Source: Escherichia coli (GTDB lineage: Bacteria > Pseudomonadota > Gammaproteobacteria > Enterobacterales > Enterobacteriaceae). Taken from it: a stretch of 64,000 bases of DNA. The stretch lies in NCBI RefSeq assembly GCF_048403405.1, contig NZ_CP183129.1. One strand, given 5' to 3'. The translations under genes and the position numbers were made by a program. Positions within the stretch are counted from its first letter, which is position 1. Every line of letters starts with the position of its first letter. Positions 230 to 29,041 of the stretch are shown piece by piece. Below the pieces are notes generated by a model. That model was not told where the DNA came from. It made no database searches and saw only the letters and a program-made list of their open reading frames with translations.

Positions 230-244
230 GTACCTCAAAGGTAA
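230..244. promoter_or_regulatory. Palindrome GTACC-TCAAA-GGTAA (operator-like site 1 of a TTACC-N5-GGTAA family)
   Basis: 15-bp inverted repeat in the intergenic region upstream of the replication operon; same family recurs at five other intergenic sites. Confidence 0.4.
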
Positions 245-323
245 TAAAAAACCAAATCTGGTTGATCAAATTTTCCAATTGTGCAAAAATAGCCAATATC
301 AATAACAAAAAGGTGCGGAAAAA

Positions 324-536
324 TTGAAGATAGTAACCAGAATGGAGGCCGCAAAAGCCGGGTTAAATCGCTATTTCACAGGAAAGCGGTGCCGTCACGG
401 CCATCTCTCTGAAAGGTATGTTCTGAACGGAACATGTGTTGAATGTGCAATGAATAGCGCCAACCGCCATCGTAATGAATTTGCTTGTGCACTAAAGAGT
501 GCAAGAGGGGAAACCTATGGCAAGCAGCTGGATTAA
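324..536 (+). CDS. Small Cys/His-rich protein (putative zinc-finger regulator); alternative ATG start at 342
   Basis: ORF with TTG start preceded by AAAGGTG; motif CRHGH...CVEC; overlaps the start of the next gene. Confidence 0.35.
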
Positions 537-1347
537 GGTTGAAGTTATCACTCCTGATAAACCTGAAATTTTTCAGATAGCAGAAATTCTGGGTATTGAT
601 CCAGATGCTGTTCTTGGAAAGCTGGTTCGTATATGGGCATGGGCTGACCAGCAAACAATAGACGGTAACGCTGGCAGCGTTACAAAAGGAGTACTTGATA
701 GACTCGCTTTTATTACAGGATTTGCTGACGCCCTCATTAGCGTCGGATGGCTTGCTTATCATGACGGCAAACTAATTCTTCCAAACTTTGAGCGACACAA
801 TGGAGAATCATCGAAAAAACGTGCACTTACGAATAGAAGAGTGGCAGAGCATCGAAAACGAGTAACGCAAAAAGTAACGCCAACAGCGTTACAAAAGGAG
901 TTACCAGAGGAAGAGGAAGAGGAAGATATATATAAAACCCCACACATAGCGCACGTGCGCGAGAGTGCTCCGACCAGTGAGTCGAGTGGTACGCCGTTGC
1001 AGGCAGCAGAACCTGCATCCCTGGATGGCCTGAGTGAACCCATCGGGAAATTTCCGATGACCGATGGCTGGCATCCGTCGCCGGATTTTCGACGGCGTGC
1101 TGCGCTGTGGGGAACGGCCCTGCCGGAACCGGAATTTACACCTGCTGAACTTGCTGCATTCCGGGATTACTGGATGGCTGAGGGCAAAGTGTTCACGCAG
1201 GTTCAGTGGGAACAAAAATTCGCCAGGCACGTAAATCATATCAGGGGAAAATCAAAAAACGCCGGGAAAAGCGATGAGCTTGACTGGAATAACACTGACT
1301 GGATAGAAGGGGTGTGGGATGAAATCAACTCCAGAACTTCTCAATGA
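517..1347 (+). CDS. Phage replication initiation protein (O-like replisome organiser with DnaT-like C-terminal domain)
   Basis: ATG at 517 preceded by GAGGGG; N-terminal WIKVEV...IWAWADQQ organiser-like region, acidic linker, C-terminal [10 protein letters not shown]...WEQKFARHV; directly upstream of a P-like gene. Confidence 0.55.
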
Positions 1348-2095
1348 GTACGATCGCTTACGTGAGCATGGTGTTGCTGTGCATGAAGAGCGGCGTGACA
1401 GCAATGGCAAAAAGGAGCAGGTCGCTAGAATTTTCAATGAACTATTTGTCCAGTTACAGGCTGCATTTCCCGCAAGCGTTTCGACCATAAGGGAGCAGAA
1501 CAAACTTAATGAATTCCGTAAGCAATGGATGCTTGCGTTTCTGGAGAATGGGATCACAACAATGGAACAGGTTAACGCTGGTATGCGCCACGCCCGCGCC
1601 AGTGAGTCTCCGTTCTGGCCGTCGCCAGGGCAATTTATCAAGTGGTGTAAAGACAGCAAGATGGTTCTTGGCGTCACCATTGACGATGTGATGGCGGAGT
1701 TTCACCGGTACAGCAAGGAAAAAAGTTTATATCCTGGTGGTCCCGAAAGATTCCCGTGGCGGCATCCGGTTATGTACTGGGTCGTATGTGATACCCGCCG
1801 TGCAATGTATCAGCGCCAGCTTAGCGAGATTGAAGTTGAGAAACACGCGCGCAGGCTGCTCGATGATTGGGCGAAAAAGGTGGCTTCCGGGCAGCAGATA
1901 CCCGATCCGGTGATCAGCATACAGGCAAAGCCAGAACCCATGAGTACGCCTCCGGACACAGGGAGAGACGTTTACCACCCGCCAGGGCGAAGTTTCGGGT
2001 GCATGCCTAACGCCGCCACCCTTGGGGGAATAACACCGGCTCAGTGGCTGATGGAGGAATACAGGCGGGGAAAGGCGGCAGGATTTATCAAGTAA
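1319..2095 (+). CDS. Lambda P-like replicative helicase loader
   Basis: Translation aligns with recalled lambda P: FPAS...[30 protein letters not shown]...[10 protein letters not shown]. Confidence 0.8.
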
Positions 2096-2132
2096 TACCA
2101 GCGCGATAGCGCATTTTTTTACGCCTTGATAA

Positions 2133-2147
2133 TTACCTGCAGGGTAA
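2133..2147. promoter_or_regulatory. Palindrome TTACC-TGCAG-GGTAA (operator-like site 2)
   Basis: Perfect 5-bp arms with 5-bp spacer, between a TTGATA -35-like hexamer and the DUF1064 gene. Confidence 0.45.
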
Positions 2148-2194
2148 CAAAATATTCTAAACTCTATTGATTTCGTGTCTTATGTGGTTTTTAA

Positions 2195-2209
2195 TTACCT
2201 CAGAGGTAA
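2195..2209. promoter_or_regulatory. Palindrome TTACC-TCAGA-GGTAA (operator-like site 3), overlapping the ribosome-binding region of the gene at 2213
   Basis: Perfect palindrome ending 3 nt before the ATG; its right arm AGGTAA doubles as a Shine-Dalgarno-like sequence; preceded by TATGTGGTT. Confidence 0.45.
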
Positions 2210-2212
2210 ATC

Positions 2213-2557
2213 ATGAGAAAACAGATACAGGCTCTTGGTCGACTCAAAACAGGCCAGATGAACAAAACAGAATCTGCGTATTGCCAGCACCTTGAGCTGC
2301 GTAAACGTGCAGGGGAAATCGCCTGGTATCGATTCGAGGGTATCAAGCTGCGGTTAGCTGACAACACGTTCTATACGCCCGATTTTGCTGTGATGCTCGC
2401 CACCGGCGAGATGGAACTGCACGAAGTGAAAGGTTTCTGGACCGACGACGCTAGGGTGAAAACCAAAGTCGCCGCAGATCAGTATCCGTTCCGAATCATC
2501 GGGGTAACGGTTAAACCAAAGAAAGCAGGTGGTGGCTGGAACATCGAAGAGTTCTGA
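2213..2557 (+). CDS. DUF1064 family phage protein
   Basis: 114 aa with the DUF1064-like pattern (ESAYCQHLELRKRAGEI...YTPDF...HEVKG) as recalled; typical early-region position. Confidence 0.55.
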   Translation: MRKQIQALGRLKTGQMNKTESAYCQHLELRKRAGEIAWYRFEGIKLRLADNTFYTPDFAVMLATGEMELHEVKGFWTDDARVKTKVAADQYPFRIIGVTVKPKKAGGGWNIEEF

Positions 2558-2609
2558 ATCGACGATCTTTTTAGTTATCAATGTAATCAATAAGTTATGT
2601 GGATAAGCG

Positions 2610-3239
2610 ATGGTAAAGATGGAAAGTAATATCAAAGGGTTAGTTGCCGCCGGGCATGAGATGGCTTCGGAACTGAAAGCTGAATGTGGTGCCGTTGATA
2701 TGCGTAGTGTGGCAAAGCTGCTCAGCGATTTGGCAACGCAACTGGAAGTGCAACTGGTGCGTGCTAATGCGCTGGCCGAAGACCAACAGAGAGCGATTGA
2801 GTCAATTAAGCAGGCTGATTCGGCTGTTAAGTTGGCACACAAGAAGTTTTCGGAGCTGGCAGCGGAGAATGCGGCACTGAAGGCTGCGCACCCTCAACCA
2901 TTCGGACCTGAGATGATGAAGGCTCTTGATGCGTATGAGAAGTATCAGGATGAAGTGCCGGAGACTGGGATGCTCAATGCATTTTTCATCTTGCGCGACA
3001 GTATCCGTGTTGACACCCCAGCCACCGATGCTTTCCTGGCTGAAGTGCGGGCGCAGGGCGTGGATGCTGCTATAGAAGCTGCAAAAAATCTGGTGGCCCA
3101 AGAATATGAGTATAAGGATTTCAAAGCGGCGCAGAGTGATTGCTGTATGCACCCTGGTTCAGATCTGGTAGGGAAGGTTGAAATGACTGAGTGGTTAGTT
3201 GACTTTGCTGCCCAGCTTCGCAAAGGAGGCAACCAGTGA
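2610..3239 (+). CDS. Hypothetical phage protein (alpha-helical/coiled-coil)
   Basis: 209-aa ORF in the early operon, no overlap conflicts, no recognisable family. Confidence 0.45.
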   Translation: MVKMESNIKGLVAAGHEMASELKAECGAVDMRSVAKLLSDLATQLEVQLVRANALAEDQQRAIESIKQADSAVKLAHKKFSELAAENAALKAAHPQPFGPEMMKALDAYEKYQDEVPETGMLNAFFILRDSIRVDTPATDAFLAEVRAQGVDAAIEAAKNLVAQEYEYKDFKAAQSDCCMHPGSDLVGKVEMTEWLVDFAAQLRKGGNQ

Positions 3240-3763
3240 GCAAGATTGACTATCAGGCACTGCGTGAAAAGGCAGAGAAAGCAACGTGTGGTGTGTGGTC
3301 GCTCGAATATGGAGAGGGACGATTTGATGGTGATGATGCGCTAATTCATCGTGAAGTTGCTGGATATATTCCCATTTGCAGAATTGAAGGAGCGCATCCT
3401 GAAAGCGGTTTCGATGAAGATTTCCAAACTGAACAGCAGGCCAATGCTGAATTCATCGCCGCAGCCAATCCGGCTACTGTGCTGGCGCTTCTGGATGAAC
3501 GGGAAAGAAACCAGCAATACATCAAACGCCGCGACCAGGAGAACGAGGATATTGCGCTAACGGTAGGGAAGCTGCGCGTTGAGCTGGAAGCCGCAGAGAA
3601 GCGCATAGCAGAACTGGAAGCGCGGGAAATACTGCTCCCTGAACGTAGCAGCATGCTTCATCGAACAGATTTTCACGATGATTACCAAACGGTAATGGCA
3701 TACAAAGTTTCTGAAGTCATCGATGCAATCCGCGCTACTGGCATTCGCATCAAAGGAGAGTGA
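3236..3763 (+). CDS. Ead/Ea22-like protein
   Basis: GTG start after AAAGGAGG; MSKIDYQALREKAEKA... N-terminus and coiled-coil C-terminus typical of Ead/Ea22-like early proteins (recalled). Confidence 0.55.
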   Translation: MSKIDYQALREKAEKATCGVWSLEYGEGRFDGDDALIHREVAGYIPICRIEGAHPESGFDEDFQTEQQANAEFIAAANPATVLALLDERERNQQYIKRRDQENEDIALTVGKLRVELEAAEKRIAELEAREILLPERSSMLHRTDFHDDYQTVMAYKVSEVIDAIRATGIRIKGE

Positions 3764-3764
3764 C

Positions 3765-4121
3765 GTGGAAATAAATCCAGAAGATGAGTTAAGCAATATC
3801 GTTTTATTTCCGGTAAAAGAGGATGACCCACGTAATCAGGTTAATTTTCTTTATGAGCCATCGGAAAGACCATACTGCCATCACGCTTCTGTCCGGGTTG
3901 ACGAAAAAGAGCGTCAGGTCCGCTGTAAAATCTGCGGTGCAGTTGTGGAGCCGTTTGACTGGATGCTCTCTGTGGCGAAAAGAGAAACCAGACTGGCAGA
4001 TGATGTAAGGCTATTGCGCCAGGAGGAACAGGAAAGGCGGAAAAATATAGAAAAGTTAATTCAGATTGAGCGTAACGCGAAAGCGCGGATACGCAGGGCG
4101 ACAAAATCCAGAACTGAATAA
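3765..4121 (+). CDS. Hypothetical protein with zinc-ribbon-like CHH...CKIC motif
   Basis: GTG at 3765 immediately after the Ead stop, with RBS AAAGGAGAG upstream; 118 aa, basic C-terminus. Confidence 0.4.
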   Translation: MEINPEDELSNIVLFPVKEDDPRNQVNFLYEPSERPYCHHASVRVDEKERQVRCKICGAVVEPFDWMLSVAKRETRLADDVRLLRQEEQERRKNIEKLIQIERNAKARIRRATKSRTE

Positions 4122-4216
4122 TTAAATTTAGCACTGTTAAAAATTTTATCCTTAACCGGAGGGATTTCTGCACCCTCAGAACATCAGGAGGCCGCCCGAA
4201 AGGGCGGTAATGAAAA

Positions 4217-4981: not shown

Positions 4982-5265
4982 TGGTCTCCTTCGCGAAATA
5001 TACGATTATTGACTGGATAGCATTCATTCAGGTTTTGCTCATCTGGTTTTATATGGCTTACAGGAGTGGACAGTGGATTGTCAGTGTAGCCTGTAGCAAT
5101 GGATGGCGTTGGTGGAACCGAAAGAATAAAAAAGCGCTGGCCTTGGCTTCGTTTTACGAAGCATTCAATCTTAACAGTCTTCAGCCTGGTTCTGTCGTTG
5201 TAGTCACCACTCAAAGCGGCATGACGATACAAATTCACAAGCCAAAGGAGGAAGGTCGTGGCTAA
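4978..5265 (+). CDS. Small hydrophobic hypothetical protein
   Basis: 95-aa ORF translationally coupled to its neighbours (ATGA overlap); Trp/aromatic-rich. Confidence 0.35.
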   Translation: MMVSFAKYTIIDWIAFIQVLLIWFYMAYRSGQWIVSVACSNGWRWWNRKNKKALALASFYEAFNLNSLQPGSVVVVTTQSGMTIQIHKPKEEGRG

Positions 5266-5870: not shown

Positions 5871-5919
5871 CATGTCACGAGTAGATTATGCATGATGAAT
5901 TTGATGGGTTTTGAATACT

Positions 5920-5945
5920 GCCGCCAACTATGGCGGCTTTATTTT
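5920..5945 (+). terminator. Rho-independent terminator closing the early gene block
   Basis: Hairpin GCCGCC-AACTAT-GGCGGC followed by TTTATTTT. Confidence 0.5.
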
Positions 5946-5952
5946 GCATGGT

Positions 5953-5981
5953 ACTATTACCACAACGGTAACTATTACCAC
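5953..5981 (+). repeat. Direct repeat ACTATTACCAC x2 (18-bp period) upstream of the terminase small subunit gene
   Basis: Two exact 11-mers at 5953-5963 and 5971-5981 between the terminator and the terS start. Confidence 0.5.
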
Positions 5982-5988
5982 GGTGGTT

Positions 5989-6585
5989 ATGATGCCTGCT
6001 GAACCTAAAACCTATAAACGCAAATCAACGCAATTTAAGCCGCTCACAGCAATGCAGGAGGCTTATTGCCAGTCATACATCAAAACGCCTGAAAACCAGA
6101 CTCAGGCAGCGATTAACGCAGGATTCTCCCCAAATACAGCGGCAGTTAAAGCCAGTGTCATGATGCGCGATGAACGCATTCAAAAACGGATTGCCGAGTT
6201 GATGGAGGAGCGCAACAAACGAATGCGCGTCAGTGCTGATTACGTTCTCATGCGCCTGGTGGAGATCGACCAGATGGACGTGATCGATATCCTCAACGAC
6301 GATGGGAGCCTTAAACCAATCCGCGAGTGGCCGAAAATCTGGCGCACTACGCTTAGTGGCTTTGATCTGTCATCGACCATCATGAACATGAACGAGGATT
6401 CGATAGAGACAATCCTCAAAAAAATTAAATGGCCTGACAAGGTGAAGAACCTCGAACTGATTGGTAAGCACGTCGACGTCAACGCATTCAAAGAACGCCT
6501 GGATGTTAATGTGAATGTGACAATTGCTGATCGCATAGCGGCAGCCAGGAAGCGACTCAAAGAACGTCAGGATGGTAATCAGTGA
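5989..6585 (+). CDS. Terminase small subunit
   Basis: Placed directly upstream of and overlapping the large terminase; helical DNA-binding-type N-terminus; ATG pair at 5989/5992 after GGTGG (upstream in-frame Thr-rich extension from 5911 judged non-coding). Confidence 0.55.
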   Translation: MMPAEPKTYKRKSTQFKPLTAMQEAYCQSYIKTPENQTQAAINAGFSPNTAAVKASVMMRDERIQKRIAELMEERNKRMRVSADYVLMRLVEIDQMDVIDILNDDGSLKPIREWPKIWRTTLSGFDLSSTIMNMNEDSIETILKKIKWPDKVKNLELIGKHVDVNAFKERLDVNVNVTIADRIAAARKRLKERQDGNQ

Positions 6586-8057: not shown

Positions 8058-8107
8058 TCCGCTGGTGGGGATAATGTCGTTGATATCCTCTGATGAGGAT
8101 AAAACAA

Positions 8108-8135
8108 AGCCAGCTCATCGGCTGGCTGTTTGTGA
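8108..8135. terminator. Bidirectional terminator hairpin between the large terminase and the minus-strand gene
   Basis: AGCCAGC-TCATC-GGCTGGCT with a T-rich run on the minus strand and GTTTGTG on the plus strand. Confidence 0.4.
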
Positions 8136-8147
8136 CATGTCACGGTG

Positions 8148-8504
8148 TTATTGCTCGCTTAGCTTCTGCTTCAGCAAGTAACCTTCGAGCATCCAGATTT
8201 TGTTTACAGCATTCTGCCGGGCAATCTTCCGACCAATTTCTGCATCAAAGTTTTCCGGGCTTGCACAGGCGCTCTCTCCGGTGACGGTGAAGCCATTCTT
8301 CAGCACCAGTACGCAGAAAGTAAGGAGGTCTGTAGATTTATGCGCTGTCCACGCATCGCCAATGCCCATATTGGCGGCACGAATACCGTCATAAGCAGTA
8401 AAGAAATGCTCTTCAAGAATGATGCTTTCGATATATTGGGGCGTAACTCGCGGTGCCGTTTTGCCTTTCTCAACGATTTCTTTTTCGATTTGCTGGTCGT
8501 TCAT
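8148..8504 (-). CDS. Hypothetical protein encoded opposite to the packaging and head genes (moron-like)
   Basis: 118-aa ORF with RBS AGGTGAG; bracketed by hairpin terminators on both sides. Confidence 0.5.
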   Translation of the reverse strand: MNDQQIEKEIVEKGKTAPRVTPQYIESIILEEHFFTAYDGIRAANMGIGDAWTAHKSTDLLTFCVLVLKNGFTVTGESACASPENFDAEIGRKIARQNAVNKIWMLEGYLLKQKLSEQ

Positions 8505-8511
8505 AATCTCA

Positions 8512-8538
8512 CCTTAAAAAAATGCCCGGCGAACCGGG
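8512..8538 (-). terminator. Putative minus-strand terminator immediately upstream of the RBS of the 8504 gene
   Basis: Hairpin CCCGGTTCGCCGGG followed by TTTTTTT on the minus strand. Confidence 0.4.
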
Positions 8539-8614
8539 AGAACTGGAAGCAATGAGTTATGCCTTCCGTGGCTGTACGGGTTTACAGCATGAAGTCATCG
8601 CAATGGCGTCCTGC

Positions 8615-8659
8615 TGTAAAAAGGGCGGTGATAGTCCTTCAAGGGAAACCATCACCGCC
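8615..8659 (-). terminator. Putative minus-strand terminator downstream of the tRNA
   Basis: 9-bp stem GGCGGTGAT/ATCACCGCC with 18-nt loop, followed on the minus strand by CTTTTTA. Confidence 0.4.
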
Positions 8660-8702
8660 AAGCCCCTGGAACTTCTGGCATCACGGTCCTTAGGCGTGAT
8701 TC

Positions 8703-8779
8703 TGGCGTGGCATGCAGGATTCGAACCTGCGACCAACCGCTTAGAAGGCGGTTGCTCTGTCCAACTGAGCTAATGCCAC
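8703..8779 (-). tRNA. tRNA-Arg (anticodon UCU), phage-encoded
   Basis: 77-nt cloverleaf folded by hand: acceptor GTGGCAT/ATGCCAC, D-arm GCTC-AGTTGGACA-GAGC, anticodon arm ACCGC-CTTCTAA-GCGGT, T-arm GCAGG-TTCGAAT-CCTGC, discriminator G, encoded CCA. Confidence 0.85.
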
Positions 8780-9101
8780 AACGCTGAGAGCACTTAGCCT
8801 GTTAAGGCGCCACACTTTGTCGCGGCTCCATAAATGCTCTCATCGTTGCACCCTCGTCTCTTCCGAGGCGTCACACCGAATCGCCGGGATGGTGAATCCC
8901 CGTGCGCGGAATAAAACCGCTCGACTTGCACATTCCGGCTACCTGGTTCGTTTGCCCGAGCAAGTGAGGGTGCCCCTTAAACGTATCCAGACCGCTATCG
9001 ACGCATGTGCCATACACCGTACTGCTCAAAATAAAAGCTCACCCCACCTGTTCAATTTAACGACAAGCCAGTCAGGTTAATAACCGGAATGAACTCTTTA
9101 C

Positions 9102-9116
9102 TTACCTGAAGGGTAA
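9102..9116. promoter_or_regulatory. Palindrome TTACC-TGAAG-GGTAA (operator-like site 4) upstream of the head-gene operon
   Basis: 15-bp palindrome about 45 nt upstream of TATGTGGTT-N5-GGTAATA and the 9206 start. Confidence 0.45.
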
Positions 9117-9205
9117 TAATTGTGCGTTAAATGTCAACCACCTACGATAAATAAATCATATGTGGTTAAATTGGTAATAATTTAATTGCGTACGGAGTCA
9201 TTGAT

Positions 9206-9412: not shown

Positions 9413-9426
9413 CCGGAGTCATTGAA

Positions 9427-18422: not shown

Positions 18423-21169
18423 TGCCTGTTGTTCCTACTACATCCGGACGTCAGGTGCAAAGTCGTGGTGTGCAAACCGGTGGTTTTCAGATCTTCGATG
18501 TTCCTCAAGCAGATCAGGTGCTGGCGAATGTCGCAGATCAGTATGCGGTGGCATATGGTGAAGCCAGGCAGAAAGCGAATGTTGCTATGGCCCAGGAGGC
18601 GTTACTGCAATTTAACCAATTTGCAGATGACCAGATTAACAACCCTGAAAGTGGGCTGATTTCTAAACAGGGTAAAAACGCTCTTGGTCAGAGTGACGCT
18701 GTTATGAAAAATATGCAGGAAAGGGCTCAGGCATTATTAGGCTCAATTCCTGAAAGTGAGGAAAGGAATAAATTATCCTTTCAACTCCAGCAGTCTATGC
18801 AGTCTTATTACAATCAGGCACGTCGATATGAAGTTGGGCAGTTTCAGCAATTCCAAGATCAAACGTATTTGTCAGGAAATGCATTGGCTGTCACTCAGTC
18901 TGCGGGGCTATATAGCGATAACCAAGCATTTGTCGATTTAGCCAAGCAGCGATTTGAATCTATTGATCAATACGCTGATGCGCATGGGCTTCCTGATGAG
19001 TGGCGTGTTCAGCAGAAAACTCAGCTCAAGGAACAAATGGGGCAGCAAGCATGGATAGGAAATATCGCTCAAAAATACAACGAGTTTCTTCAGGTTAATG
19101 GAGAGCCAGGGGATCTTGATGGTGTGAGTCGTGCAATATCACATGGTAATTCATTGGATGCTCGTGGTTTACGTAATAATAACCCTGGTAATATTGAAGC
19201 GAGCAAATCTAACCCGTGGGAAGGTCAGATCGGTAGCGATGGACGTTTTGCAACGTTTGCTACCCCTGAGCATGGAATCCGCGCGTTGGGTAAAAATATG
19301 TTGTCTTACCAGCGTCAAGGCTATGACACCGTTAGCGAGATTGTTAATCGCTATGCTCCGGCTAGTGATGGTAATAATACTGATGCTTATATTAGGGCAT
19401 TGTGTGGTGAGCTTGGTGTTGGGGAGAATGATCAGCTTGATATCTCTAACCCAAAGACACTAGCTGCTTTATGTGCTGGGATTATTAAACACGAAAATGG
19501 CAGTATGCCTTATAGCACCGAACAGCTTGAAACTGGTATCTCGGCAGCCCTTGGTCTAACTAACCTTGATTCACCTAAGCGTTATACAGGCAATGCGGCA
19601 TTTGATGCTATGAGCCCTCAAATGCAAATACAGGCATTGAGGCAGGCTAATGAGCTGAGAAATCAGTACCGCCAGCAGTATGCGGACCAGCTTAGCACCG
19701 TAGTTAAAGATGCATATTCAGCCCTTGATGAAGGATTGAAACCTGAGAAGTTACCTTCTGAGGACGATTTTATCCGGGCCAATGGTCCGCGCATTGGCGC
19801 TATGAAGTGGAAGGATATGCAGGCGCAGATACAATATGGAGGTGTCATTGGTGCCGCTAAAGACCTCACTCCAGAAGGACGACAAGACATTCTTGAACGT
19901 TTACGTCCACAGGATCCAAACGCTCCTGGATTTGCAGCTAACCAGCAACGCTGGGAGAAAATGCAGGCCAAATTTAAAGAGATGGATAGGGAGTGGGAGA
20001 TTCAGCAGGGAAGAAACAGGTTCGTGTCTTCAATGCAAAATAACTTCCCGCTGGACCCGAACGACAAAAACAATCAGGCAGCGGTAGACCGTTATTTCGC
20101 GCAGGATATCGCGCCTTCGTTTTCCATATCTGATCCGCAGAGCATCAATACACTGGTCACCGTCACAACTAAAAGCGGCATGATACCAACTCAGGTTAAA
20201 ACAATGCTTAACAGTGGAGCAACATCAAGAGATCCTGCGCTGGTTGTCCCGATGGCAAAATTCTACGGTCAGTTATTCGATAATAATCCGGCGGCAGCGG
20301 CAACACTTGATAAAAGTACGATGGCATTTTACGGCAAGGTTTACGATTATTCCCGCGCTGGCGTGCCGGAGGATAAGGCTGTTGATATGGCTTACAGCCA
20401 GGTGTTCCAACAGGATGACCGAATGAAACAGATGCTTTCCACTGCCATGCGAGACAAAAAATATGTCGCGGCGAGGGCAACTGCTGCACAAAATAACGCC
20501 AGCAGTCTGACTTCCTTTGGTTCGTGGTCTCCGGATATTACCGATCCAGGAAAATCAAATGCGGCCTATCAGCGAGATTACCAGACAATTTACGATGCTA
20601 ACTTTGTACAGACAGGTGGCGATGCAGAACAGGCTGAGAAAATGACCAATGCCATGATCAGAACCACCTGGGGAGTTTCTACGGTTAATGGCAAAGCAGA
20701 GGTTATGAAGTATGCACCTGAGGCATTGTACGGAGTAAATAATGGTGCTGGTAACTGGATACAGGGGCAGTGGGAGCAGGAAAAACGCGAGCTTAAATCA
20801 AAATCCTTTGGCGGTCCTCGCAGTGATACGGACTTAATACTTGTTTCTGATGGCCTTACGGCAAGGGATAGGAGTTATGCTGTTATGGTTTTACAGCCTG
20901 ACGCAAACGGAGCGATAGAACCGAGAAATTATATTGGAGAAAATGGTCTCCCTGTTCGTTTCAAGCCGGATCAGCTGACATCTCCAATGTACAGGCAAAC
21001 CATTAAGTTCCAGCAACAGCGTGTTGATGAGGCTAGAGTGCGGAGAGAAGGCAATCCGCTGCCGCAGTTCAGCAATAAAGATGGATATACTCCTCCAGAT
21101 CTGACCAAACCATTCGGTTATGGTTCAGCCAATTACCTTCCGAGCAATATATACGCAGGGGGCAAATAA
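18422..21169 (+). CDS. Internal virion / ejection protein (T7 gp15-like core protein)
   Basis: 915 aa, in the gp15 position; contains a conserved-looking block NNPGNIEASKSNPWEGQ...HGIRALGKNMLSY. Confidence 0.5.
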   Translation: MPVVPTTSGRQVQSRGVQTGGFQIFDVPQADQVLANVADQYAVAYGEARQKANVAMAQEALLQFNQFADDQINNPESGLISKQGKNALGQSDAVMKNMQERAQALLGSIPESEERNKLSFQLQQSMQSYYNQARRYEVGQFQQFQDQTYLSGNALAVTQSAGLYSDNQAFVDLAKQRFESIDQYADAHGLPDEWRVQQKTQLKEQMGQQAWIGNIAQKYNEFLQVNGEPGDLDGVSRAISHGNSLDARGLRNNNPGNIEASKSNPWEGQIGSDGRFATFATPEHGIRALGKNMLSYQRQGYDTVSEIVNRYAPASDGNNTDAYIRALCGELGVGENDQLDISNPKTLAALCAGIIKHENGSMPYSTEQLETGISAALGLTNLDSPKRYTGNAAFDAMSPQMQIQALRQANELRNQYRQQYADQLSTVVKDAYSALDEGLKPEKLPSEDDFIRANGPRIGAMKWKDMQAQIQYGGVIGAAKDLTPEGRQDILERLRPQDPNAPGFAANQQRWEKMQAKFKEMDREWEIQQGRNRFVSSMQNNFPLDPNDKNNQAAVDRYFAQDIAPSFSISDPQSINTLVTVTTKSGMIPTQVKTMLNSGATSRDPALVVPMAKFYGQLFDNNPAAAATLDKSTMAFYGKVYDYSRAGVPEDKAVDMAYSQVFQQDDRMKQMLSTAMRDKKYVAARATAAQNNASSLTSFGSWSPDITDPGKSNAAYQRDYQTIYDANFVQTGGDAEQAEKMTNAMIRTTWGVSTVNGKAEVMKYAPEALYGVNNGAGNWIQGQWEQEKRELKSKSFGGPRSDTDLILVSDGLTARDRSYAVMVLQPDANGAIEPRNYIGENGLPVRFKPDQLTSPMYRQTIKFQQQRVDEARVRREGNPLPQFSNKDGYTPPDLTKPFGYGSANYLPSNIYAGGK

Positions 21170-24558: not shown

Positions 24559-24559
24559 G

Positions 24560-25411
24560 ATGAAAAAAATAAATTTGTTTTTTGGCATAGTGCTTTCAAT
24601 AGTCTCTGTAAATCCTACAGCTGCCAGTTCATTGCAATGCAATAAGGATAACTTTGATGCATGCAAAACGTGCGAACAATTATCAAAGGCTATCGACTTA
24701 AAAGAACCTAATCGTGGCGATTACTATAGAGGGGCTTTATGGAATGGGCTTTACGCCTCTTATGTAATTAATTGCCCTGTGGTTGCAGAGAAGTTACTGA
24801 GCCATGGTGCTATACCATCATATGGCGGATATATGGGGTCTATGGGGGCGGTTCTGACAGGAAAATGGCCTCATAACAATGAATCAATAAATCTTTCATG
24901 GGCAGATTTGCTTATAAAACATGGATTTGATGTTAATAGGCATACGGGGAATTATAAATCAGCTACTGAAGTATGGGCTATAGATAAAAAACAGATTGAA
25001 TATAAGTCAGTTTTTGACAAGTTAATTCAATCCAGCGAAGTAAAACCACTCGATCCTTCAAGAAATTTAGAATGGTGTGCGTCTGAAGGGTATCGCTCAG
25101 TTGTCGTTTATTCCCTTAACTCATGTATAGAAAATGCTATAAAACGTTTGGATGACGGTGTTTCTTCAGCGTCTGATATTTCATCAGCAGCCGTAAATTC
25201 CTGTACTAGCGATGTAGAAAATTTCAATAAGCATTTGGCATGCAAAGCAGCTGTTAAAGAAAACTCTGATAAAGAGAGAAGCAACGTTTACCAGTTATTA
25301 ACCAGTGATAGTCAAATGAATAAAAATGTTATTGATATGCTGAAGGAAAGAAATATTGAAACGGTTCTTGAATTTAGAGCTGAAAATCGATCAGCGAAAA
25401 CTGCACAGTGA
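24560..25411 (+). CDS. Secreted hypothetical protein with ankyrin-like repeats (moron), AT-rich
   Basis: Signal peptide MKKINLFFGIVLSIVSVNPTAAS; two ankyrin-like segments (...AEKLLSHGAIPS..., ...ADLLIKHGFDVN...); start 1 nt after the gp16-like stop; terminator follows. Confidence 0.55.
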   Translation: MKKINLFFGIVLSIVSVNPTAASSLQCNKDNFDACKTCEQLSKAIDLKEPNRGDYYRGALWNGLYASYVINCPVVAEKLLSHGAIPSYGGYMGSMGAVLTGKWPHNNESINLSWADLLIKHGFDVNRHTGNYKSATEVWAIDKKQIEYKSVFDKLIQSSEVKPLDPSRNLEWCASEGYRSVVVYSLNSCIENAIKRLDDGVSSASDISSAAVNSCTSDVENFNKHLACKAAVKENSDKERSNVYQLLTSDSQMNKNVIDMLKERNIETVLEFRAENRSAKTAQ

Positions 25412-25417
25412 TCAAAC

Positions 25418-25442
25418 AGGCCGCTTTCGCGGCCTTGTTTTT
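25418..25442. terminator. Bidirectional terminator hairpin
   Basis: AGGCCGC-TTTC-GCGGCCT followed by TGTTTTT; hairpin core GGCCGCTTTCGCGGCC is identical to the one at 28670. Confidence 0.55.
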
Positions 25443-25602
25443 AACGAATGCCACCGCCGCCAGGGCGGGAATCCGCAGAACGCCCACCGCAGCGGGAGCC
25501 GTCAGCGGCAGTATCGCTGTCGTGCTGACAACGACCGGCAAAGGCCTGAGTTGAAGCTACCAGAGACAACAAAACGAACAGTGCAGCAAATGCTTTTTTC
25601 AT
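25441..25602 (-). CDS. Small secreted Gly/Cys-containing peptide (53 aa) with its own promoter (moron)
   Basis: Internal start MKKAFAALFVLLSLVASTQAFA gives a clean signal peptide; promoter-like hexamers upstream and terminator downstream. Confidence 0.45.
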   Translation of the reverse strand: MKKAFAALFVLLSLVASTQAFAGRCQHDSDTAADGSRCGGRSADSRPGGGGIR

Positions 25603-25615
25603 TGTGAAATTTCCA

Positions 25616-25643
25616 TCTATAAGCCACCTCAATGTGGCGTCAA
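25616..25643 (-). promoter_or_regulatory. Candidate sigma70 promoter for the small secreted peptide (-35 TTGACG, -10 TATAGA, 16-nt spacer)
   Basis: Minus-strand hexamers at 25638-25643 and 25616-25621. Confidence 0.35.
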
Positions 25644-25672
25644 TGAGTGTAGCACTGACTTTTGTTTCGTCC

Positions 25673-25695
25673 ACAAAAAAGCCCGCAGCGCGGGC
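25673..25695 (-). terminator. Minus-strand rho-independent terminator
   Basis: GCCCGC-AGC-GCGGGC followed on the minus strand by TTTTTT, immediately after the stop at 25696. Confidence 0.5.
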
Positions 25696-25929
25696 TTACT
25701 TTTCTTCAGGTTTGTTGTCTTCAGATTTCTTCTTGATGCTTGGTTTTTGTCTAAGACCGAAAATACCAGCCACTGCAACAACTGTACCGATCACTGTGCC
25801 AGCTAGAACTTCATGACCTGTTAAACCTAATAATGTTGCACAAGCTACTGTAAAAATAGTTGCACTCAGGCCAAACCACTGCCCACGTTTATCTCTATTA
25901 ATAGCCCCGTCAAGTGCCTTTTCCTCCAT
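25696..25929 (-). CDS. Small two-TM membrane protein (possibly the C-terminal part of a frameshifted larger gene)
   Basis: 77 aa with two hydrophobic segments and a Lys-rich tail; the same frame stays open upstream to ~26073. Confidence 0.45.
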   Translation of the reverse strand: MEEKALDGAINRDKRGQWFGLSATIFTVACATLLGLTGHEVLAGTVIGTVVAVAGIFGLRQKPSIKKKSEDNKPEEK

Positions 25930-25958
25930 TTTCTGGCGGTGAGCAAACTCCTTCTCCG

Positions 25959-26243
25959 TCAGCTGGAAGATGCGTTCGGGGGCATCAGGTAAAATATCCT
26001 GATACCCGCGAAGCAGATAGGGGGAGGAAGCGGACCCTGAAACGCATGGTGAGCGACAACTATCTCCTGAATTTCAGGGCGATCAAGAACTCTTGTGAAG
26101 GCATCTGGGTGTTGAATGATCTCGTTACTTAGCCCTTCCTCAACTTCCTCGAACTCAGTTTCTTCGTTATCACTTGGTTGCCCAATAGATTTTTGCATAT
26201 TTGTCGAAGGACATTCCTTTAGCTTCTGGTTTTCCTCTTGCAT
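25959..26243 (-). CDS. Acidic hypothetical protein (possibly the middle part of a frameshifted gene)
   Basis: 94-aa ORF overlapping the upstream ORF by 74 nt in another frame; C-terminus degenerates into Pro-rich sequence near a G5 run at ~26019-26026. Confidence 0.3.
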   Translation of the reverse strand: MQEENQKLKECPSTNMQKSIGQPSDNEETEFEEVEEGLSNEIIQHPDAFTRVLDRPEIQEIVVAHHAFQGPLPPPICFAGIRIFYLMPPNASSS

Positions 26244-26496
26244 TTGAGTTTTTCCCTGTCACTATTGCCCATTTTCCGCCAGCAGGCGCTGCAATTTTTT
26301 TTCCGTTCTTTACTATATATTCAGCATAAACACGATTTTCTGACCGTCTGAGATCGTCTCCGACCATATTCATGTCTCTTGATATAACTTTGACGACAGA
26401 GTCTCGGTTTAAAGCCTTGGCATAGTTGGAGCCAGGAACGATACCCAAAGGGGTGCCAGACTCTATAGCCAGCTCCTTGACATATCTTCTGCTCAT
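26170..26496 (-). CDS. Hypothetical protein, putative DNA-binding/regulatory N-terminal module
   Basis: ATG at 26496 after GAGGT; MSRRYVKELAIESGTPLGIVPGSNYAKALNRDSVVKV... Confidence 0.45.
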   Translation of the reverse strand: MSRRYVKELAIESGTPLGIVPGSNYAKALNRDSVVKVISRDMNMVGDDLRRSENRVYAEYIVKNGKKIAAPAGGKWAIVTGKNSNARGKPEAKGMSFDKYAKIYWATK

Positions 26497-26617
26497 ATGA
26501 ACCTCAACCAATCGACTTTACCAATCGGGTAATTTTAAACATGAGTATAATGCTTTTAACTGCAACGAGTGTAAACAATTATTGATAATTGTAGGCACAT
26601 CCCTGTGCCGCCGCCCG

Positions 26618-27310
26618 TCAGAAGAACCCTGCTTTGTCGTTGATGTACTCCGCGTGCGTCTGGATATCACGCAGGCATTTGCTCACACCGACGATGTAGC
26701 AGAACATGGTGGTCAACTCCGCCGCCGCGCCCGATACGTCGTGCCCGTCTTCCTGTAACTGGTTTAGCAGATTCATCAGCAGTGAGTTCTCCGTCAGGCC
26801 GAGAACACCAGACGGCGAATGAATCAGGCTGCGGTAGCCGGGCTTCAGTGGGGCGCTGTAGGTTTTGTTCTCTACCTTCATTGCCTGCATCACTGCTGAT
26901 GCTGTGGCGTTGGCTACCTGGTCGGCAACCATCTTTATGCGTTCTTCCTGCGGGAGCGAGTTTTTAATGTAACTTCCGGTGCGGCGGATCTGAGGAAGAA
27001 CCTCACCTGTAACCCATTCAAGAAATCTGAATGCTCTCGTTCCCTCAGTCATTGCCTCTTTGCAACGCAGAATAAGGATGTAGAGACCTGATTCTGAAAC
27101 GATGGATAGTTCTTGTATTCCACCAGGGGTCTGTATTGAATACAGCCCCTTTTTGTTCCAGCCTTTTTTATCAAGTTTTCTCGCTTGTGTAACATCAATA
27201 TTCAAAGCATTGCACACATCTTTGGTGACAAACCAAGGTTCTCCGTCAATCATGAACATACGGATCTGGCAGGATGACTCAAAGGAAAAGATGGAAGGTT
27301 TGGTATTCAT
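26618..27310 (-). CDS. Antirepressor (Bro-N domain plus KilA-C/ANT C-terminal domain)
   Basis: Start MNTKPSIF after AAAGGTGA; Bro-N-like N-terminus (FMIDGEPWFVTKDVCNALNI...) and ANT-like C-terminus, as recalled. Confidence 0.7.
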   Translation of the reverse strand: MNTKPSIFSFESSCQIRMFMIDGEPWFVTKDVCNALNIDVTQARKLDKKGWNKKGLYSIQTPGGIQELSIVSESGLYILILRCKEAMTEGTRAFRFLEWVTGEVLPQIRRTGSYIKNSLPQEERIKMVADQVANATASAVMQAMKVENKTYSAPLKPGYRSLIHSPSGVLGLTENSLLMNLLNQLQEDGHDVSGAAAELTTMFCYIVGVSKCLRDIQTHAEYINDKAGFF

Positions 27311-27669
27311 AGCGATCACCTTTGTAGTTAGGTTAATCACCACCGCTGAGACCAATCAGATGGTGGTGAACTGTGCAGAGTTGGTCTTACCGGCTACAAA
27401 GGAACCCGGCGCACCTTTCGGTGCCCCCACACAGCCCACCATAGAATAGGTGCGCTTTACACATAAAAAAACCGCTTATGCGGCATATGTGCCTCTGTAG
27501 TAATCCGGGAGACCAATCCCGGCACTGGATTTTGCCAGTGCCCGATTACTATGGCACAAGAGGAGTGCAATGTAAATTTACCGAAAAGGTAATAATAAAT
27601 GCATAACTCACGTTATTTCAACCCTATATGGTTTGATTTATCCCATTTCAGAAAATACCTGCCTATTTT

Positions 27670-27699
27670 TTTGCCAGTATGCGTATACTTTCGATAGAA
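27670..27699 (+). promoter_or_regulatory. Candidate sigma70 promoter (-35 TTGCCA, 18-nt spacer, -10 TAGAAT) for the 27718 operon
   Basis: Hexamers read directly from the sequence; palindrome site 5 abuts the -10. Confidence 0.4.
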
Positions 27700-27701
27700 T
27701 G

Positions 27702-27716
27702 TTTACCCTAGAGGTA
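27702..27716. promoter_or_regulatory. Palindrome TTACC-CTAGA-GGTAG (operator-like site 5, one arm imperfect)
   Basis: Lies between the -10 hexamer and the start codon, an operator-like position. Confidence 0.4.
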
Positions 27717-27717
27717 G

Positions 27718-28173
27718 TTGGGGGTGCCCGTGAACACGAAGAGAGCTACAGTAATGCAGCATTTGAGGAAATCAGAAAAAAATAAAGACCATGAAATATT
27801 GAGTAAGGCCATTGTTCGGGCTTCCAATAATACTGTTATACCTCATGCTGAAGAGTCTGGACAGAAATTTCTTATTCGGTATTTCACTGAAAATAGTGCA
27901 GTTGAGGAGATTTTAAAACATCAGGGAGGGGAATTTAAATGTGGAAAACTGGCAGATTATGTTCGTCGTGAAACGTCTGAACAAGAAGTATATTATGCTG
28001 ATATTAATCATAAGTCAGGTGTGAAAATTGTAATAGGCTATTACACAACTCCCAAAAATGTTATGCATGAGGTCCCAAAGATGTCCGTCGAGAAATCTCA
28101 TGCAATCTCGCGCAGGATGTTTGCACGCACTGCCGAAGATATGGCTCAGGAGCTCTACGACGATGCTGAATAA
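27718..28173 (+). CDS. Hypothetical protein with acidic C-terminus; candidate antitoxin/immunity partner of the downstream YafO-like gene (ATG alternative at ~27754)
   Basis: 151-aa ORF, AT-rich; its stop overlaps the start of the next gene (ATGCTGAATAA). Confidence 0.45.
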   Translation: MGVPVNTKRATVMQHLRKSEKNKDHEILSKAIVRASNNTVIPHAEESGQKFLIRYFTENSAVEEILKHQGGEFKCGKLADYVRRETSEQEVYYADINHKSGVKIVIGYYTTPKNVMHEVPKMSVEKSHAISRRMFARTAEDMAQELYDDAE

Positions 28174-28477
28174 ATTCCAGGGGTTGGTTCACCCTGGAAT
28201 TTTTGGGAAGGACCCTGAGCTAATACCTATCAAAAACGCGTTCATAGATCACTGGCGCTACGGTCATCATAAGGATTTCGGAAAGGACACTCTGTTTCGG
28301 GATCCACCGAAAGAAATGCTGGAATATCACATACGCCACGTTCACGTAAACATCGGAAACTATACTGACAAGTTTGGTGAGAGCGGTACGGACAATGCTG
28401 GAAAAACTGGGCGTCTGGGAAGAAAGACAAGACCACTAACAAGCATAAAAAGATCCCAACCAGTGACGTGTATGTGA
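28163..28477 (+). CDS. YafO-like toxin, N-terminal part (gene appears frame-split)
   Basis: FGKDTLFRDPPKEMLEYHIRHVHV resembles the recalled YafO motif FGRDALYDD...ERVAHIHL. Confidence 0.4.
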   Translation: MLNKFQGLVHPGIFGKDPELIPIKNAFIDHWRYGHHKDFGKDTLFRDPPKEMLEYHIRHVHVNIGNYTDKFGESGTDNAGKTGRLGRKTRPLTSIKRSQPVTCM

Positions 28478-28668
28478 TTTATCTGGTCACATCTGAACGC
28501 CATGCCTTCCTTCTGGATTATTGGGATGAACCAGCACATAAGACAGTAGAAATTGACGAGCAGAAGCAAAAATTAGTTGTCGAGTGTGACAGAATTTTGC
28601 GGCTGAAAAAGTTAGAATCCATGCCGCGCGATGCTAGTTTGTGGGACCCAGAATTTTACGACTGTTAA
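28468..28668 (+). CDS. YafO-like toxin, C-terminal part in the -1 frame
   Basis: YLVTSERHAFLLDYWDEPAHK resembles recalled YafO HLVYCQGAFDEQAWLLIAILKPEPHK; overlaps the previous ORF by 10 nt. Confidence 0.35.
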   Translation: MYVIYLVTSERHAFLLDYWDEPAHKTVEIDEQKQKLVVECDRILRLKKLESMPRDASLWDPEFYDC

Positions 28669-28669
28669 T

Positions 28670-28692
28670 GGCCGCTTTCGCGGCCTTTAAAT
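28670..28692. terminator. Bidirectional terminator hairpin
   Basis: GGCCGC-TTTC-GCGGCC followed by TTTAAATTT; same hairpin sequence as at 25419-25434. Confidence 0.5.
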
Positions 28693-28950
28693 TTACCGGG
28701 TTTGTTTTCGTAATTGTTCGGCACAATAGTCGAGATGTGTTTGCAGATCCCGCATAGACATCTGTGAGCTGGTGACGTAGTTAATCAGTGCAGTCAGTTC
28801 GGCAAGTGGGCCATCGACATTAAATCCATCCTTATCGAGATCCCGGAGTAATTTCATCAAGTGCGATCCCTCCACCAGTGACCTGACGCCTCCCGGCGTG
28901 TGAATCCTTTCGGTAAATCCGTCTTCCAGTGGATAGTGATACTGCTGCAT
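28693..28950 (-). CDS. Stand-alone KilA-C/ANT C-terminal domain protein (paralog of the antirepressor C-terminus)
   Basis: Internal ATG at 28950 after GGAGAAG; MQQYHYPLEDGFTERIHTPGGVRSLVEGSHLMKLLRDLDKDGFNV... aligns with the C-terminal ~85 aa of the antirepressor at 26618-27310. Confidence 0.6.
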   Translation of the reverse strand: MQQYHYPLEDGFTERIHTPGGVRSLVEGSHLMKLLRDLDKDGFNVDGPLAELTALINYVTSSQMSMRDLQTHLDYCAEQLRKQTR

Positions 28951-29026
28951 CTTATCTTCTCCATGCAATAACTGTATGTTTATACAGTAACAAATAATTT
29001 GTTTGCTATCCAGCACGTTTTGCAAA

Positions 29027-29041
29027 TTACCTGAAAGGTAA
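29027..29041. promoter_or_regulatory. Palindrome TTACC-TGAAA-GGTAA (operator-like site 6) in the divergent region upstream of the tailspike gene
   Basis: Perfect palindrome; followed by ATATCTATTCGTA (also beside site 1) and TATGTGGTT-N5-GGTAATA. Confidence 0.45.

Follow-up and report, generated by a model that had tools for sequence, protein, structure and literature searches.

The repressor systems of the epsilon15-like phages (epsilon15 gp38; Rep and Ant of SPC32H) are the closest described relatives of the locus analyzed here. The epsilon15 GenBank record annotates ATTACC-N5-GGTAAT as a 'repressor' binding site before terS, gp3/portal, the tailspike gene, and gp43 (the gene after the replication genes), with three further annotated repressor sites beside the repressor gene. 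SPC32H Rep is described as a tetramer that binds palindromic DNA and is taken apart by Ant (PMC9638917), and looping of DNA has been linked to the fold of its tetramerisation domain (PMC9986798). Overexpression of the ZX5 repressor, whose sequence is stated to be identical to that of the phiV10 repressor, brought the mRNA levels of holin and endolysin down by over 99.9% (PMC9782041). In phage P1, the C1 repressor has 22 dispersed operators with the asymmetric 17-bp sequence ATTGCTCTAATAAATTT (PMC8546580).

We analyzed a 64,000-nt stretch of Escherichia coli DNA (the window), which includes a phiV10/epsilon15-like Uetakevirus prophage inserted at guaA. The right end of the prophage is the attR core ATTGAGTGGGAATGATT (33803–33819, plus strand; core sequence from PMC9782041). 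Among 5,426 complete E. coli genomes, 849 match the first 2.5 kb of the window, and in 112 of these the match covers 80% or more of the query. Palindromes of the form TTACC-N5-GGTAA recur throughout the prophage and are very probably, judging from their sequence and setting, the operators of the immunity repressor Rep, which would shut off each lytic unit directly and be relieved by antirepressors. Because the epsilon15 record already annotates repressor sites, the family is a rediscovery of the known Rep operators of epsilon15/phiV10-like phages and not a new system.

The exact palindrome occurs seven times in the window (at 2133, 2195, 5957, 9102, 26518, 27578, and 29027). Dinucleotide shuffles give an expectation of 0.05 per window, and none of 100 shuffles reached seven, so the motif is far above chance. 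A sequence-only reading of this DNA had listed six sites. Four are exact (2133, 2195, 9102, and 29027), and two are present with one mismatch each: 230–244 reads GTACC..GGTAA, and the site placed at 27702–27716 truly spans 27703–27717 and reads TTACC..GGTAG. Four more had been overlooked (the exact 5957, 26518, and 27578, and the one-mismatch 5975), which brings the family to at least 10 members in the window rather than six. The prophage total is thus seven exact and three one-mismatch sites (230, 5975, and 27703), distributed over seven junctions. Four one-mismatch matches in host DNA (38010, 47152, 50531, and 59503) include no exact match and are treated as background; 38010 and 47152, whose positions were examined, overlap ORFs.

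All 10 prophage sites are intergenic, as first claimed for the shorter list. Across the prophage span used for this count (window 1–33819), DNA outside genes and RNAs amounts to 2,319 bp, or 6.9%, and the probability of such placement by chance is ∼2 × 10−12. The intergenic status of 5957 and 5975 requires the terS start at ATG 5990/5993, as in the epsilon15 annotation, rather than the long TTG ORF from 5911; that of 29027 requires the short ant gene to start at 28950. Related genomes contain 8–11 exact sites each, versus ∼0.04 expected, and the consensus of 54 distinct sites, wATTACC-yNwNr-GGTAATw, agrees with the annotated epsilon15 17-mers. Conservation in related phages, which the sequence-only reading had set as a check, was borne out: five relatives keep both arms at orthologous slots, with divergent 5-bp spacers and flanks. 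Four of the junctions match epsilon15-annotated slots (before terS, gp3/portal, the tailspike gene, and the gene after the replication genes).

This distribution also bears on whether the sites could be targets of DNA modification or restriction, or recombination hot spots at module borders, with no role in transcription. The phage encodes an MT-A70 adenine methylase, and some sites lie exactly at module-exchange points (e.g., the D2 region, which is conserved up to the ATG and followed by different genes in different phages). However, restriction or methylation targets would not be limited to 6.9% of the DNA or cluster around the repressor gene, and conserved regulatory DNA would in any case be expected at the borders of modules. 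We consider this explanation scarcely credible.

The operators head a series of distinct units. The one mismatch of operator C (230–244; GTACCTCAAAGGTAA) is in its left arm. The site follows the terminator (196–215) of the cro-like gene by 15 bp and precedes a conserved TTGATC-N17-AAAAAT promoter-like element (262–290) by 17 bp, and its GTACC variant occupies the equivalent slot in phiV10, EC.W1-9, Tyrion, and HS4. The exact operator D1 (2133–2147) sits within the spacer of a TTGATA-N16-CAAAAT promoter-like match (2126–2153). It is the distal partner of D2 (2195–2209, exact), 62 bp away centre to centre. D2 abuts a TTGATT-N17-TTTAAT promoter-like element (2167–2195), whose hexamers were read by eye from the sequence. 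D2 was correctly described as ending 3 nt before a start codon (ATG 2213): the GAGGT within it provides the DUF1064 gene with its Shine-Dalgarno sequence, a layout kept in all six phages compared.

Two operators precede the terminase genes. E1 (5957–5971, exact) lies 20 bp past a terminator (5920–5937), immediately upstream of terS, and has as its orthologue in epsilon15 the 'repressor' protein_bind feature at 12–27. E2 (5975–5989) has one mismatch (a GGTTA arm), is 18 bp from E1, and ends at the terS start codon (ATG 5990/5993). The exact operator F (9102–9116), upstream of gp3 and the portal/head operon, corresponds to the epsilon15 'repressor' feature at 2931–2947; its half-sites are invariant among relatives, and its upstream flank is not alignable. 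Operator H (29027–29041, exact) lies between two divergently transcribed genes, short ant on the minus strand and the tailspike gene on the plus strand, and is orthologous to the epsilon15 'repressor' feature at 19895–19911. The flank said to be shared by sites C and H is indeed present: the 13-mer ATATCTATTCGTA occurs exactly twice, to the left of C (220–232) and to the right of H (29041–29053).

The remaining operators belong to the antirepressor/accessory region. G1 (26518–26532, exact), also found in EC.W1-9, overlaps the −10 hexamer of a minus-strand TTAAAA-N16-TAAAAT match (26559–26532) ahead of the ORF at 26496–26170. G2 (27578–27592, exact) abuts the −10 hexamer of a minus-strand TTGAAA-N18-TATTAT match (27621–27592), presumably the promoter of the isrK-C4-ant operon, and an operator upstream of isrK occurs at the equivalent place in phiV10, Tyrion, and EC.W1-9. 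G3 (27703–27717), with one mismatch (GGTAG), lies 2 nt past the −10 hexamer of a plus-strand TTGCCA-N18-TAGAAT match (27671–27700), ahead of accessory genes at 27754–28669. Its reported position downstream of a promoter-like element stands; the likely start codon is ATG 27754, not TTG 27718.

Promoter-like matches thus overlap or abut D1, G1, G2, and G3. These placements bear on the notion that the palindromes work as RNA hairpins, either masking ribosome-binding sites or bound by a translational repressor. D2 and G3 do adjoin start codons, a D2 hairpin would take in the Shine-Dalgarno sequence, and the predicted hairpins have energies of −4 to −5.5 kcal/mol. These stems are nonetheless weak (three of four are not clearly above shuffled controls), and the invariant arms offer no covariation. 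Moreover, since D1 falls in a promoter spacer, and G1 and G2 overlap or abut −10 hexamers, these sites would not be transcribed as hairpins; by eye, the third operator between rep and cro apparently also lies within a promoter spacer. The sites serve genes of either orientation, and they are grouped around the repressor gene. A role in RNA is accordingly very improbable, and operators acting on DNA remain the preferred reading.

The full operators C, E, F, and H all lie clear of any convincing sigma70 promoter. Repression there might work as a roadblock, through cooperation with a half-site, or by action on an activator-dependent promoter. Half-sites are indeed present at two late units. We infer a putative tailspike promoter, TCCATA-N17-TAGAAT (29069–29097, plus strand), from reading the sequence. 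The ATGTGGTT box was detected at this putative promoter, and a conserved box within the promoter spacer, ATGTGGTTTTTCAGGTAA, is kept in six phages and has an operator half-site at its end (GGTAA, 29087–29091). Similarly, an invariant box ahead of gp3, CATATGTGGTTAAATTGGTAATAATTTAAT (9157–9186, plus strand), contains a GGTAA half-site (9173–9177) 61 bp from operator F and has a putative promoter function. More than 100 distinct IMG/VR sequences preserve the 62-bp pairing of full operators. This distance is about six helical turns and would therefore suit cooperative binding by one tetramer. The conserved 62-bp pairing and the half-operators in predicted late-gene promoters (gp3/portal and tailspike) possibly have not been described before.

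The repressor gene itself lies outside the window, ∼200–800 bp to the left of position 1, judged from the E. coli prophage HS4, which includes the left arm and has 99.3% identity to the start of the window. The window opens with the 3′ end of the cro-like gene (1–173, plus strand; gp39 homologue), with rep and the OL/OR operators just to its left. In HS4, sites at 8071, 8133, 8845, about 8862, and 8893 surround rep (8205–8789). The palindrome likewise flanks rep in phiV10, epsilon15, SPC32H, Tyrion, and EC.W1-9, with two or three copies to the left of rep and three between rep and the cro-like gene. This arrangement in five phages and the HS4 prophage upholds the proposal of a phage regulon for one protein, encoded in the missing left arm. 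Rep matches helix-turn-helix PHROG families, and HS4 Rep matches SPC32H Rep (PDB 5D50) over its full length (residues 1–190, E = 4e-42); no relationship to P1 C1 emerged from these matches. An NLVNRW stretch in the N-terminal region is invariant among Reps with 43% overall identity and is presumed from its sequence to be the recognition helix. Two other suggestions about the regulator did not hold: it had been called dimeric, and work on the SPC32H homologue gives a tetramer; the zinc-finger ORF at 324, named as a candidate, gained no support.

The three operators between rep and cro form a classic shared-switch layout, and the PHROG family matched by the cro-like protein bears the name transcriptional repressor. 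The sites could therefore be bound mainly by the cro-like protein, or by Rep and Cro jointly, with the dispersed sites damping their units during lytic growth rather than keeping lysogeny. We think this unlikely, but worth keeping in view. The epsilon15 record credits the sites to the repressor, Rep is described for SPC32H as a tetramer on palindromic sites, and there is no sign here of Cro specificity. A contribution from Cro would complement repression by Rep rather than replace it.

Antirepression appears to have two separate inputs. The short ant gene (28693–28950, minus strand) belongs to the epsilon15 gp19/SPC32H Ant family, with a PHROG 450 match and matching annotation in EC.W1-9 and SPC32H. 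Immediately upstream is a LexA box, AACTGTATGTTTATACAGTA (28970–28989), with an exact CTGT-N8-ACAG at 28972–28987. A second, Bro-N type antirepressor gene (26618–27355, minus strand; start annotated in EC.W1-9 equivalent to window 27310) has a C-terminal part related to the short Ant (phrog_450). Its leader encodes an isrK-like RNA (27465–27541) and a C4 antisense RNA (27359–27446), together spanning 27359–27541 on the minus strand. The Rfam matches are full-length, at 74.7 (isrK) and 78.6 bits (C4), both over gathering scores. Operator G2 lies on one side of the two RNAs and the Bro-N ant gene on the other, an order common to phiV10, Tyrion, and EC.W1-9.

We propose that Rep, encoded just left of the window, is a two-domain helix-turn-helix homologue of SPC32H Rep and would occupy about 15–17 operators across the prophage in the lysogen. 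The operator-headed lytic units would be early left, early right, the replication genes, the DUF1064 unit, the terminase, the head, the antirepressor/accessory units, and the divergent ant/tailspike region. Because separate lytic units are each headed by an operator, each could be shut off directly, without a cascade. At several units, the operator lies within or next to a sigma70-type promoter, where bound Rep would keep RNA polymerase out. At the D unit and the early-left OL pair beside rep (seen in relatives), one operator would stand on either side of the promoter, at a constant distance of 62 bp from each other. As with lambda CI, a higher oligomer is likely to bind cooperatively and loop the DNA. 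Induction would proceed by antirepression, with the LexA box giving the short Ant an SOS input and the second Ant held behind the isrK/C4 antisense RNAs. Both ant regions carry their own Rep operators.

A more ambitious version, which we offer tentatively and would put at slightly under an even chance, places every lytic unit, including the structural operons, under direct repression by a Rep tetramer bridging two DNA elements. These would be either two full operators exactly 62 bp apart around a promoter (the OL pair; 2133/2195) or a full operator and a promoter-embedded half-operator in a CATATGTGGTT-N5-GGTAAT box (61 bp away at gp3, 50 bp at the tailspike gene). Taken together with the two antirepressors, one controlled by LexA and the other by the C4 RNA, the result would be a distributed immunity circuit like that of P1 but based on an apparently unrelated repressor with symmetric sites.

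A reading from sequence alone thus recovered a genuine phage regulon, whose regulator can now be named. The gain is modest: the epsilon15 operator annotation is carried over to the E. coli phiV10-like prophages common at guaA, late operons and both antirepressor loci are seen to carry operators, and the 62-bp pairing provides a testable geometry. These results may be of use in engineering phiV10-type reporter phages and in understanding the induction of phiV10-like prophages.

With the epsilon15-like phages, the locus shares the 15–17 bp palindrome, (A)TTACC-N5-GGTAA(T), the gene junctions where it occurs, sites on both sides of a homologous rep (5D50), and a short ant gene with a LexA box beside the tailspike gene. 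Unlike them, the E. coli lineage has extra sites at C (past the cro terminator) and at G1 and G3 (in an accessory region common to EC.W1-9). It also has no site before the lysis cassette, which directly follows the tailspike gene. Its Rep is 43% identical to that of the Salmonella phages, and its operator spacers are less A/T-rich.

Mycobacteriophage L5 gp71 also has many repressor sites beyond its immunity region. These stoperators are asymmetric and orientation-dependent, lie inside transcribed regions, and block elongation. Operators C and E, just past terminators (196–215 and 5920–5937) and without obvious promoter overlap, resemble them in that a roadblock to read-through is possible, whereas the sites here are symmetric and at unit starts, several inside promoters. 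Lambda CI likewise has operators on both sides of its gene, three of them between repressor and cro. However, lambda late genes lack CI operators and are under Q antitermination, and lambda is induced by RecA-stimulated self-cleavage rather than by antirepressors, as described for this group. P1 C1 shares the plan of a single repressor with many scattered operators, each at a separate lytic unit, and in P1 immI (c4 RNA–icd–ant), too, a C4 antisense RNA restrains an antirepressor, and the operon promoter carries a repressor operator. The operators here are symmetric, in contrast to those of P1, and where P1 late genes need the activator Lpa, the late units of this prophage bear operators themselves.

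A phiV10/epsilon15-like prophage (genus Uetakevirus) occupies the window from position 1 to about 33819. Parts of it are 96–99% identical to HEMP4, ZX5, TL-2011b, EC.W1-9 and phiV10, and its packaging and head genes are ∼77–80% identical to those of epsilon15, SPN1S and SPC32H. At 33803 lies ATTGAGTGGGAATGATT, the attachment core of phiV10, epsilon15 and ZX5 according to PMC9782041; outside the prophage, the window consists of E. coli core DNA (yfgI, yfgH, pdeF). The window start falls inside a cro-like gene. The missing left arm was supplied by a 99.3%-identical prophage of E. coli HS4 (locus L004), in which window position 1 corresponds to about position 9001; this arm carries guaA, int, recombination genes, rep (8205–8789, minus strand) and the cro-like gene (8944–9174). 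Within the window, the 700 bp from 8505 to 9205 contain no convincing genes; a minus-strand tRNA-Arg(tct) lies there at 8703–8779.

The exact palindrome TTACC-N5-GGTAA occurs seven times in the 64-kb window (2133, 2195, 5957, 9102, 26518, 27578 and 29027), compared with a chance expectation of 0.05, and 0 of 100 dinucleotide-preserving shuffles reach seven. The left half of the window holds three further sites with one mismatch, at 230 (GTACC arm), 5975 (GGTTA arm) and 27703 (GGTAG arm), and the right half holds four one-mismatch matches. We call the palindromes in the prophage operators, as candidate binding sites of the phage immunity repressor Rep, and label them C (230), D1/D2 (2133/2195), E1/E2 (5957/5975), F (9102), G1–G3 (26518, 27578, 27703) and H (29027). 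The sequence-only reading had proposed a family of six palindromes with the same half-site. Four of its six are exact; the other two carry one mismatch, one of them being placed 1 nt off, and the family was incomplete, four members having been overlooked, three of them exact. The palindrome observation is therefore partly confirmed. Its significance is strongly confirmed, the motif being above background frequency and conserved in relatives. A 13-mer, ATATCTATTCGTA, had been said to flank two of the palindromes, and exactly two copies do exist (220–232 and 29041–29053), abutting C and H on opposite sides. In relatives this 13-mer is invariant at C and variable at H; the pair may have been left by duplication of an operator cassette, or may be coincidental. 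The one-mismatch matches that fall in host DNA were considered as operators and treated as background; those at 38010 and 47152 overlap ORFs. The match at 47152–47166 (TTACCTGTTTGGTCA) covers the start codon of a small host ORF (46808–47167, minus strand) and is probably due to chance.

The operators are confined to intergenic DNA, as the sequence-only reading had held. We mapped the genes by combining the ORF list with annotated relatives and with tRNA and Rfam matches. This leaves 2,319 of the 33,819 bp of the prophage (6.9%) as intergenic DNA, and all ten sites fall there (chance ∼2 × 10−12), given a terS start at ATG 5990/5993 and an ant start at 28950. The long terS ORF annotated in phiV10 and HS4 (TTG 5911) crosses a strong terminator (5920–5937) as well as E1 and E2. 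Judged by how epsilon15 is annotated and by a conserved MPAEPK start, the real start is probably ATG 5990/5993. Likewise, the ORF at 28693–29073 is in reality the 85-aa short Ant, starting at 28950. The palindromes might instead be a restriction or methylation target, but such a target would not be limited to intergenic DNA.

This palindrome family is already known, because it is annotated in epsilon15 and has been studied at the protein level in SPC32H. The epsilon15 GenBank record (AY150271.2) contains protein_bind features labelled ‘repressor / lysogeny’ that precede terS (12–27), gp3/portal (2931–2947), the tailspike gene (19895–19911) and gp43 (35906–35922), or lie beside the repressor gene (32479–32494, 32554–32570, 32616–32632). 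Their sequences are (A)TTACC-N5-GGTAA(T), and window sites 5957, 9102, 29027 and 2133 occupy the same junctions as the features before terS, gp3/portal, tailspike and gp43, respectively. phiV10, epsilon15, SPC32H, Tyrion, EC.W1-9 and the left arm of HS4 each have 7–11 exact sites, with ∼0.04 expected, and in every case rep has two to three sites on its left, with three more separating it from cro. When 54 distinct sites are counted in symmetrised form, the consensus is wATTACC-yNwNr-GGTAATw, with an A/T-favouring centre. In orthologous slots both arms are constant, while the spacer and flanks vary: the gp3 slot has spacers TGAAG, TGAAA, TTAAA, TCAAG and TAAAA, and its upstream flank is unalignable between E. 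coli and Salmonella phages. The GTACC variant arm of site 230 is common to all E. coli-type relatives and Tyrion. An operator at the lysis cassette, present in relatives, is absent here even at two mismatches.

Two further conserved stretches were seen. At 2195–2215, and in the orthologous slot of loci L002 and L005, a regulatory stretch (TTACCTNAGRGGTAAATCATG) is conserved as far as the start codon. The gene that follows is not the same throughout: the window, phiV10 and SPC32H have DUF1064 there, epsilon15 and Tyrion a RuvC-like resolvase, and the module-exchange border sits exactly at this ATG. In the left arm, L004 2004–2018 reads TTACCTTAAAGGTAT, with the same single mismatch in 6/6 genomes; it lies ∼45–57 bp upstream of int, within a larger inverted repeat (GACGGTAT...ATACCGTC). 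This site is only a possible Rep operator, because epsilon15 annotates integrase-binding and RNase III sites at the same spot.

The proposal that one regulator serves the palindrome family is supported, and we identify that regulator as Rep. Over residues 1–190, the 194-aa Rep of the HS4 prophage matches 5D50, the structure of the SPC32H repressor (E = 4 × 10−42). E. coli-type and Salmonella-type Reps share only 43% identity, and an N-terminal stretch including NLVNRW, presumed to be the recognition helix, is invariant between them, which fits the half-site shared by the two types of phage. In SPC32H, palindromic DNA is bound by a Rep tetramer in which the paired DNA-binding domains come from different dimers, and the tetrameric antirepressor Ant splits this Rep tetramer into dimers (PMC9638917); the tetramerisation domain of Rep has a fold associated with DNA looping (PMC9986798). 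The ZX5 repressor, whose sequence is stated to be identical to that of the phiV10 repressor, abolished free phage when overexpressed and lowered holin and endolysin transcripts by >99.9% (PMC9782041). The cro-like protein may share the same sites, which is compatible with regulation by Rep. Two other candidates were rejected. The zinc-finger ORF at 324–536 matches only a PHROG family of unknown function and has no link to the motif, and LexA has only one good box in the prophage part of the window (28972–28987).

Four operators lie at promoter-like elements. D1 occupies the spacer of TTGATA-N16-CAAAAT (2126–2153), and G3 begins 2 nt past the −10 of TTGCCA-N18-TAGAAT (27671–27700). On the minus strand, G2 abuts the −10 of TTGAAA-N18-TATTAT (27621–27592) and G1 overlaps that of TTAAAA-N16-TAAAAT (26559–26532). 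The palindromes could alternatively work as RNA hairpins. This is unlikely: the stems are weak (−4 to −5.5 kcal/mol) and the arms never vary, leaving no covariation, and for these reasons we set the hairpin reading aside; several sites also sit in promoter spacers. C and E1/E2 lie 15–20 bp past terminators with no good promoter over them, and F and H lie 30–45 bp upstream of a conserved box, CATATGTGGTT-N5-GGTAAT. A sigma70 scan gave no convincing promoter over E, F or H, and the promoters that we read there from conserved hexamers are uncertain. The box at F is invariant in 6/6 phages; that at H reads TCCATA-N17-TAGAAT, with an operator half-site immediately before the −10. The half-site is 61 bp from the full operator at F and 50 bp at H, and we infer that both boxes may be promoters with half-operators. 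A box of the form (C)ATATGTGGTT-W3 occurs three times (2182–2192, 9160–9170, 29074–29084; 0.36 expected); in each case a rightward unit follows and an exact operator lies 32–43 bp upstream. At 9157–9186 the box belongs to a ∼60-bp stretch that does not vary among six phages with only ∼77–80% identity in their coding DNA. The box may be a promoter with a half-operator, or another factor's site. Adjoining F, an invariant TGTCAA (9126–9131; TTGACA on the minus strand) points to a possible leftward promoter. On its right side, F is followed immediately by sequence similar to the early-left (OL1) region next to rep (GGGTAATAATTRTGCGT).

The D pair and the early-left operator pair beside rep (OL; L004 8071/8133) are spaced 62 bp centre to centre in every genome examined. 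Both share a layout of distal operator, ∼20 nt, a CTATTGA(C/T) −35, 16–17 nt, an A/T-rich −10 and proximal operator, as judged from 40 (D) and 37 (OL) distinct IMG/VR variants. Among ∼150 distinct IMG/VR sequences with neighbouring exact sites 47–77 bp apart (loci L007–L126), 120 have a spacing of 62–63 bp; the sequences are mutually related, so the spacing is conserved but does not constitute independent evidence. The distance from G2 to G3 is 125 bp (27578 to 27703).

Two antirepressor genes lie near operators. The short Ant gene (28693–28950, minus strand; SPC32H Ant family) is directly preceded by a near-consensus LexA box, AACTGTATGTTTATACAGTA, at 28970–28989, with operator H 37 bp beyond it. 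CTGT-N8-ACAG is at chance level overall, and this box is its only exact occurrence in a regulatory position in the prophage. The Bro-N antirepressor gene (26618–27310/27355, minus strand) is separated from G2 by isrK (27465–27541) and a C4 antisense RNA (27359–27446), both full-length Rfam matches on the minus strand; phiV10, Tyrion and EC.W1-9 show the same succession of operator, isrK, C4 and ant. Short Ant and the C-terminal part of the Bro-N antirepressor both match PHROG family 450, so the Ant domain is present twice in the prophage, each copy being controlled differently.

We consider it very probable that Rep holds all lytic units off through the operators and that the Ants relieve this. 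Rep would sit on operators at the head of each unit, silencing all of them in the lysogen. SOS-dependent loss of LexA would release short Ant, which would inactivate Rep, and Bro-N Ant would be a second input, gated by Rep and C4 RNA; all units would then be derepressed directly. What doubt there is about this model concerns the predicted binding at these particular sites and how Rep would act at C, E, F and H. Three details merit a specialist's attention: the constant 62-bp spacing of paired operators, the proposed half-operator boxes ahead of late genes, and the isrK/C4-ant module under Rep control. The operator-isrK-C4-ant module of this prophage has the layout of P1 immI, in which c4 RNA represses Ant synthesis and C1 binds 22 dispersed, asymmetric operators (PMC8546580).
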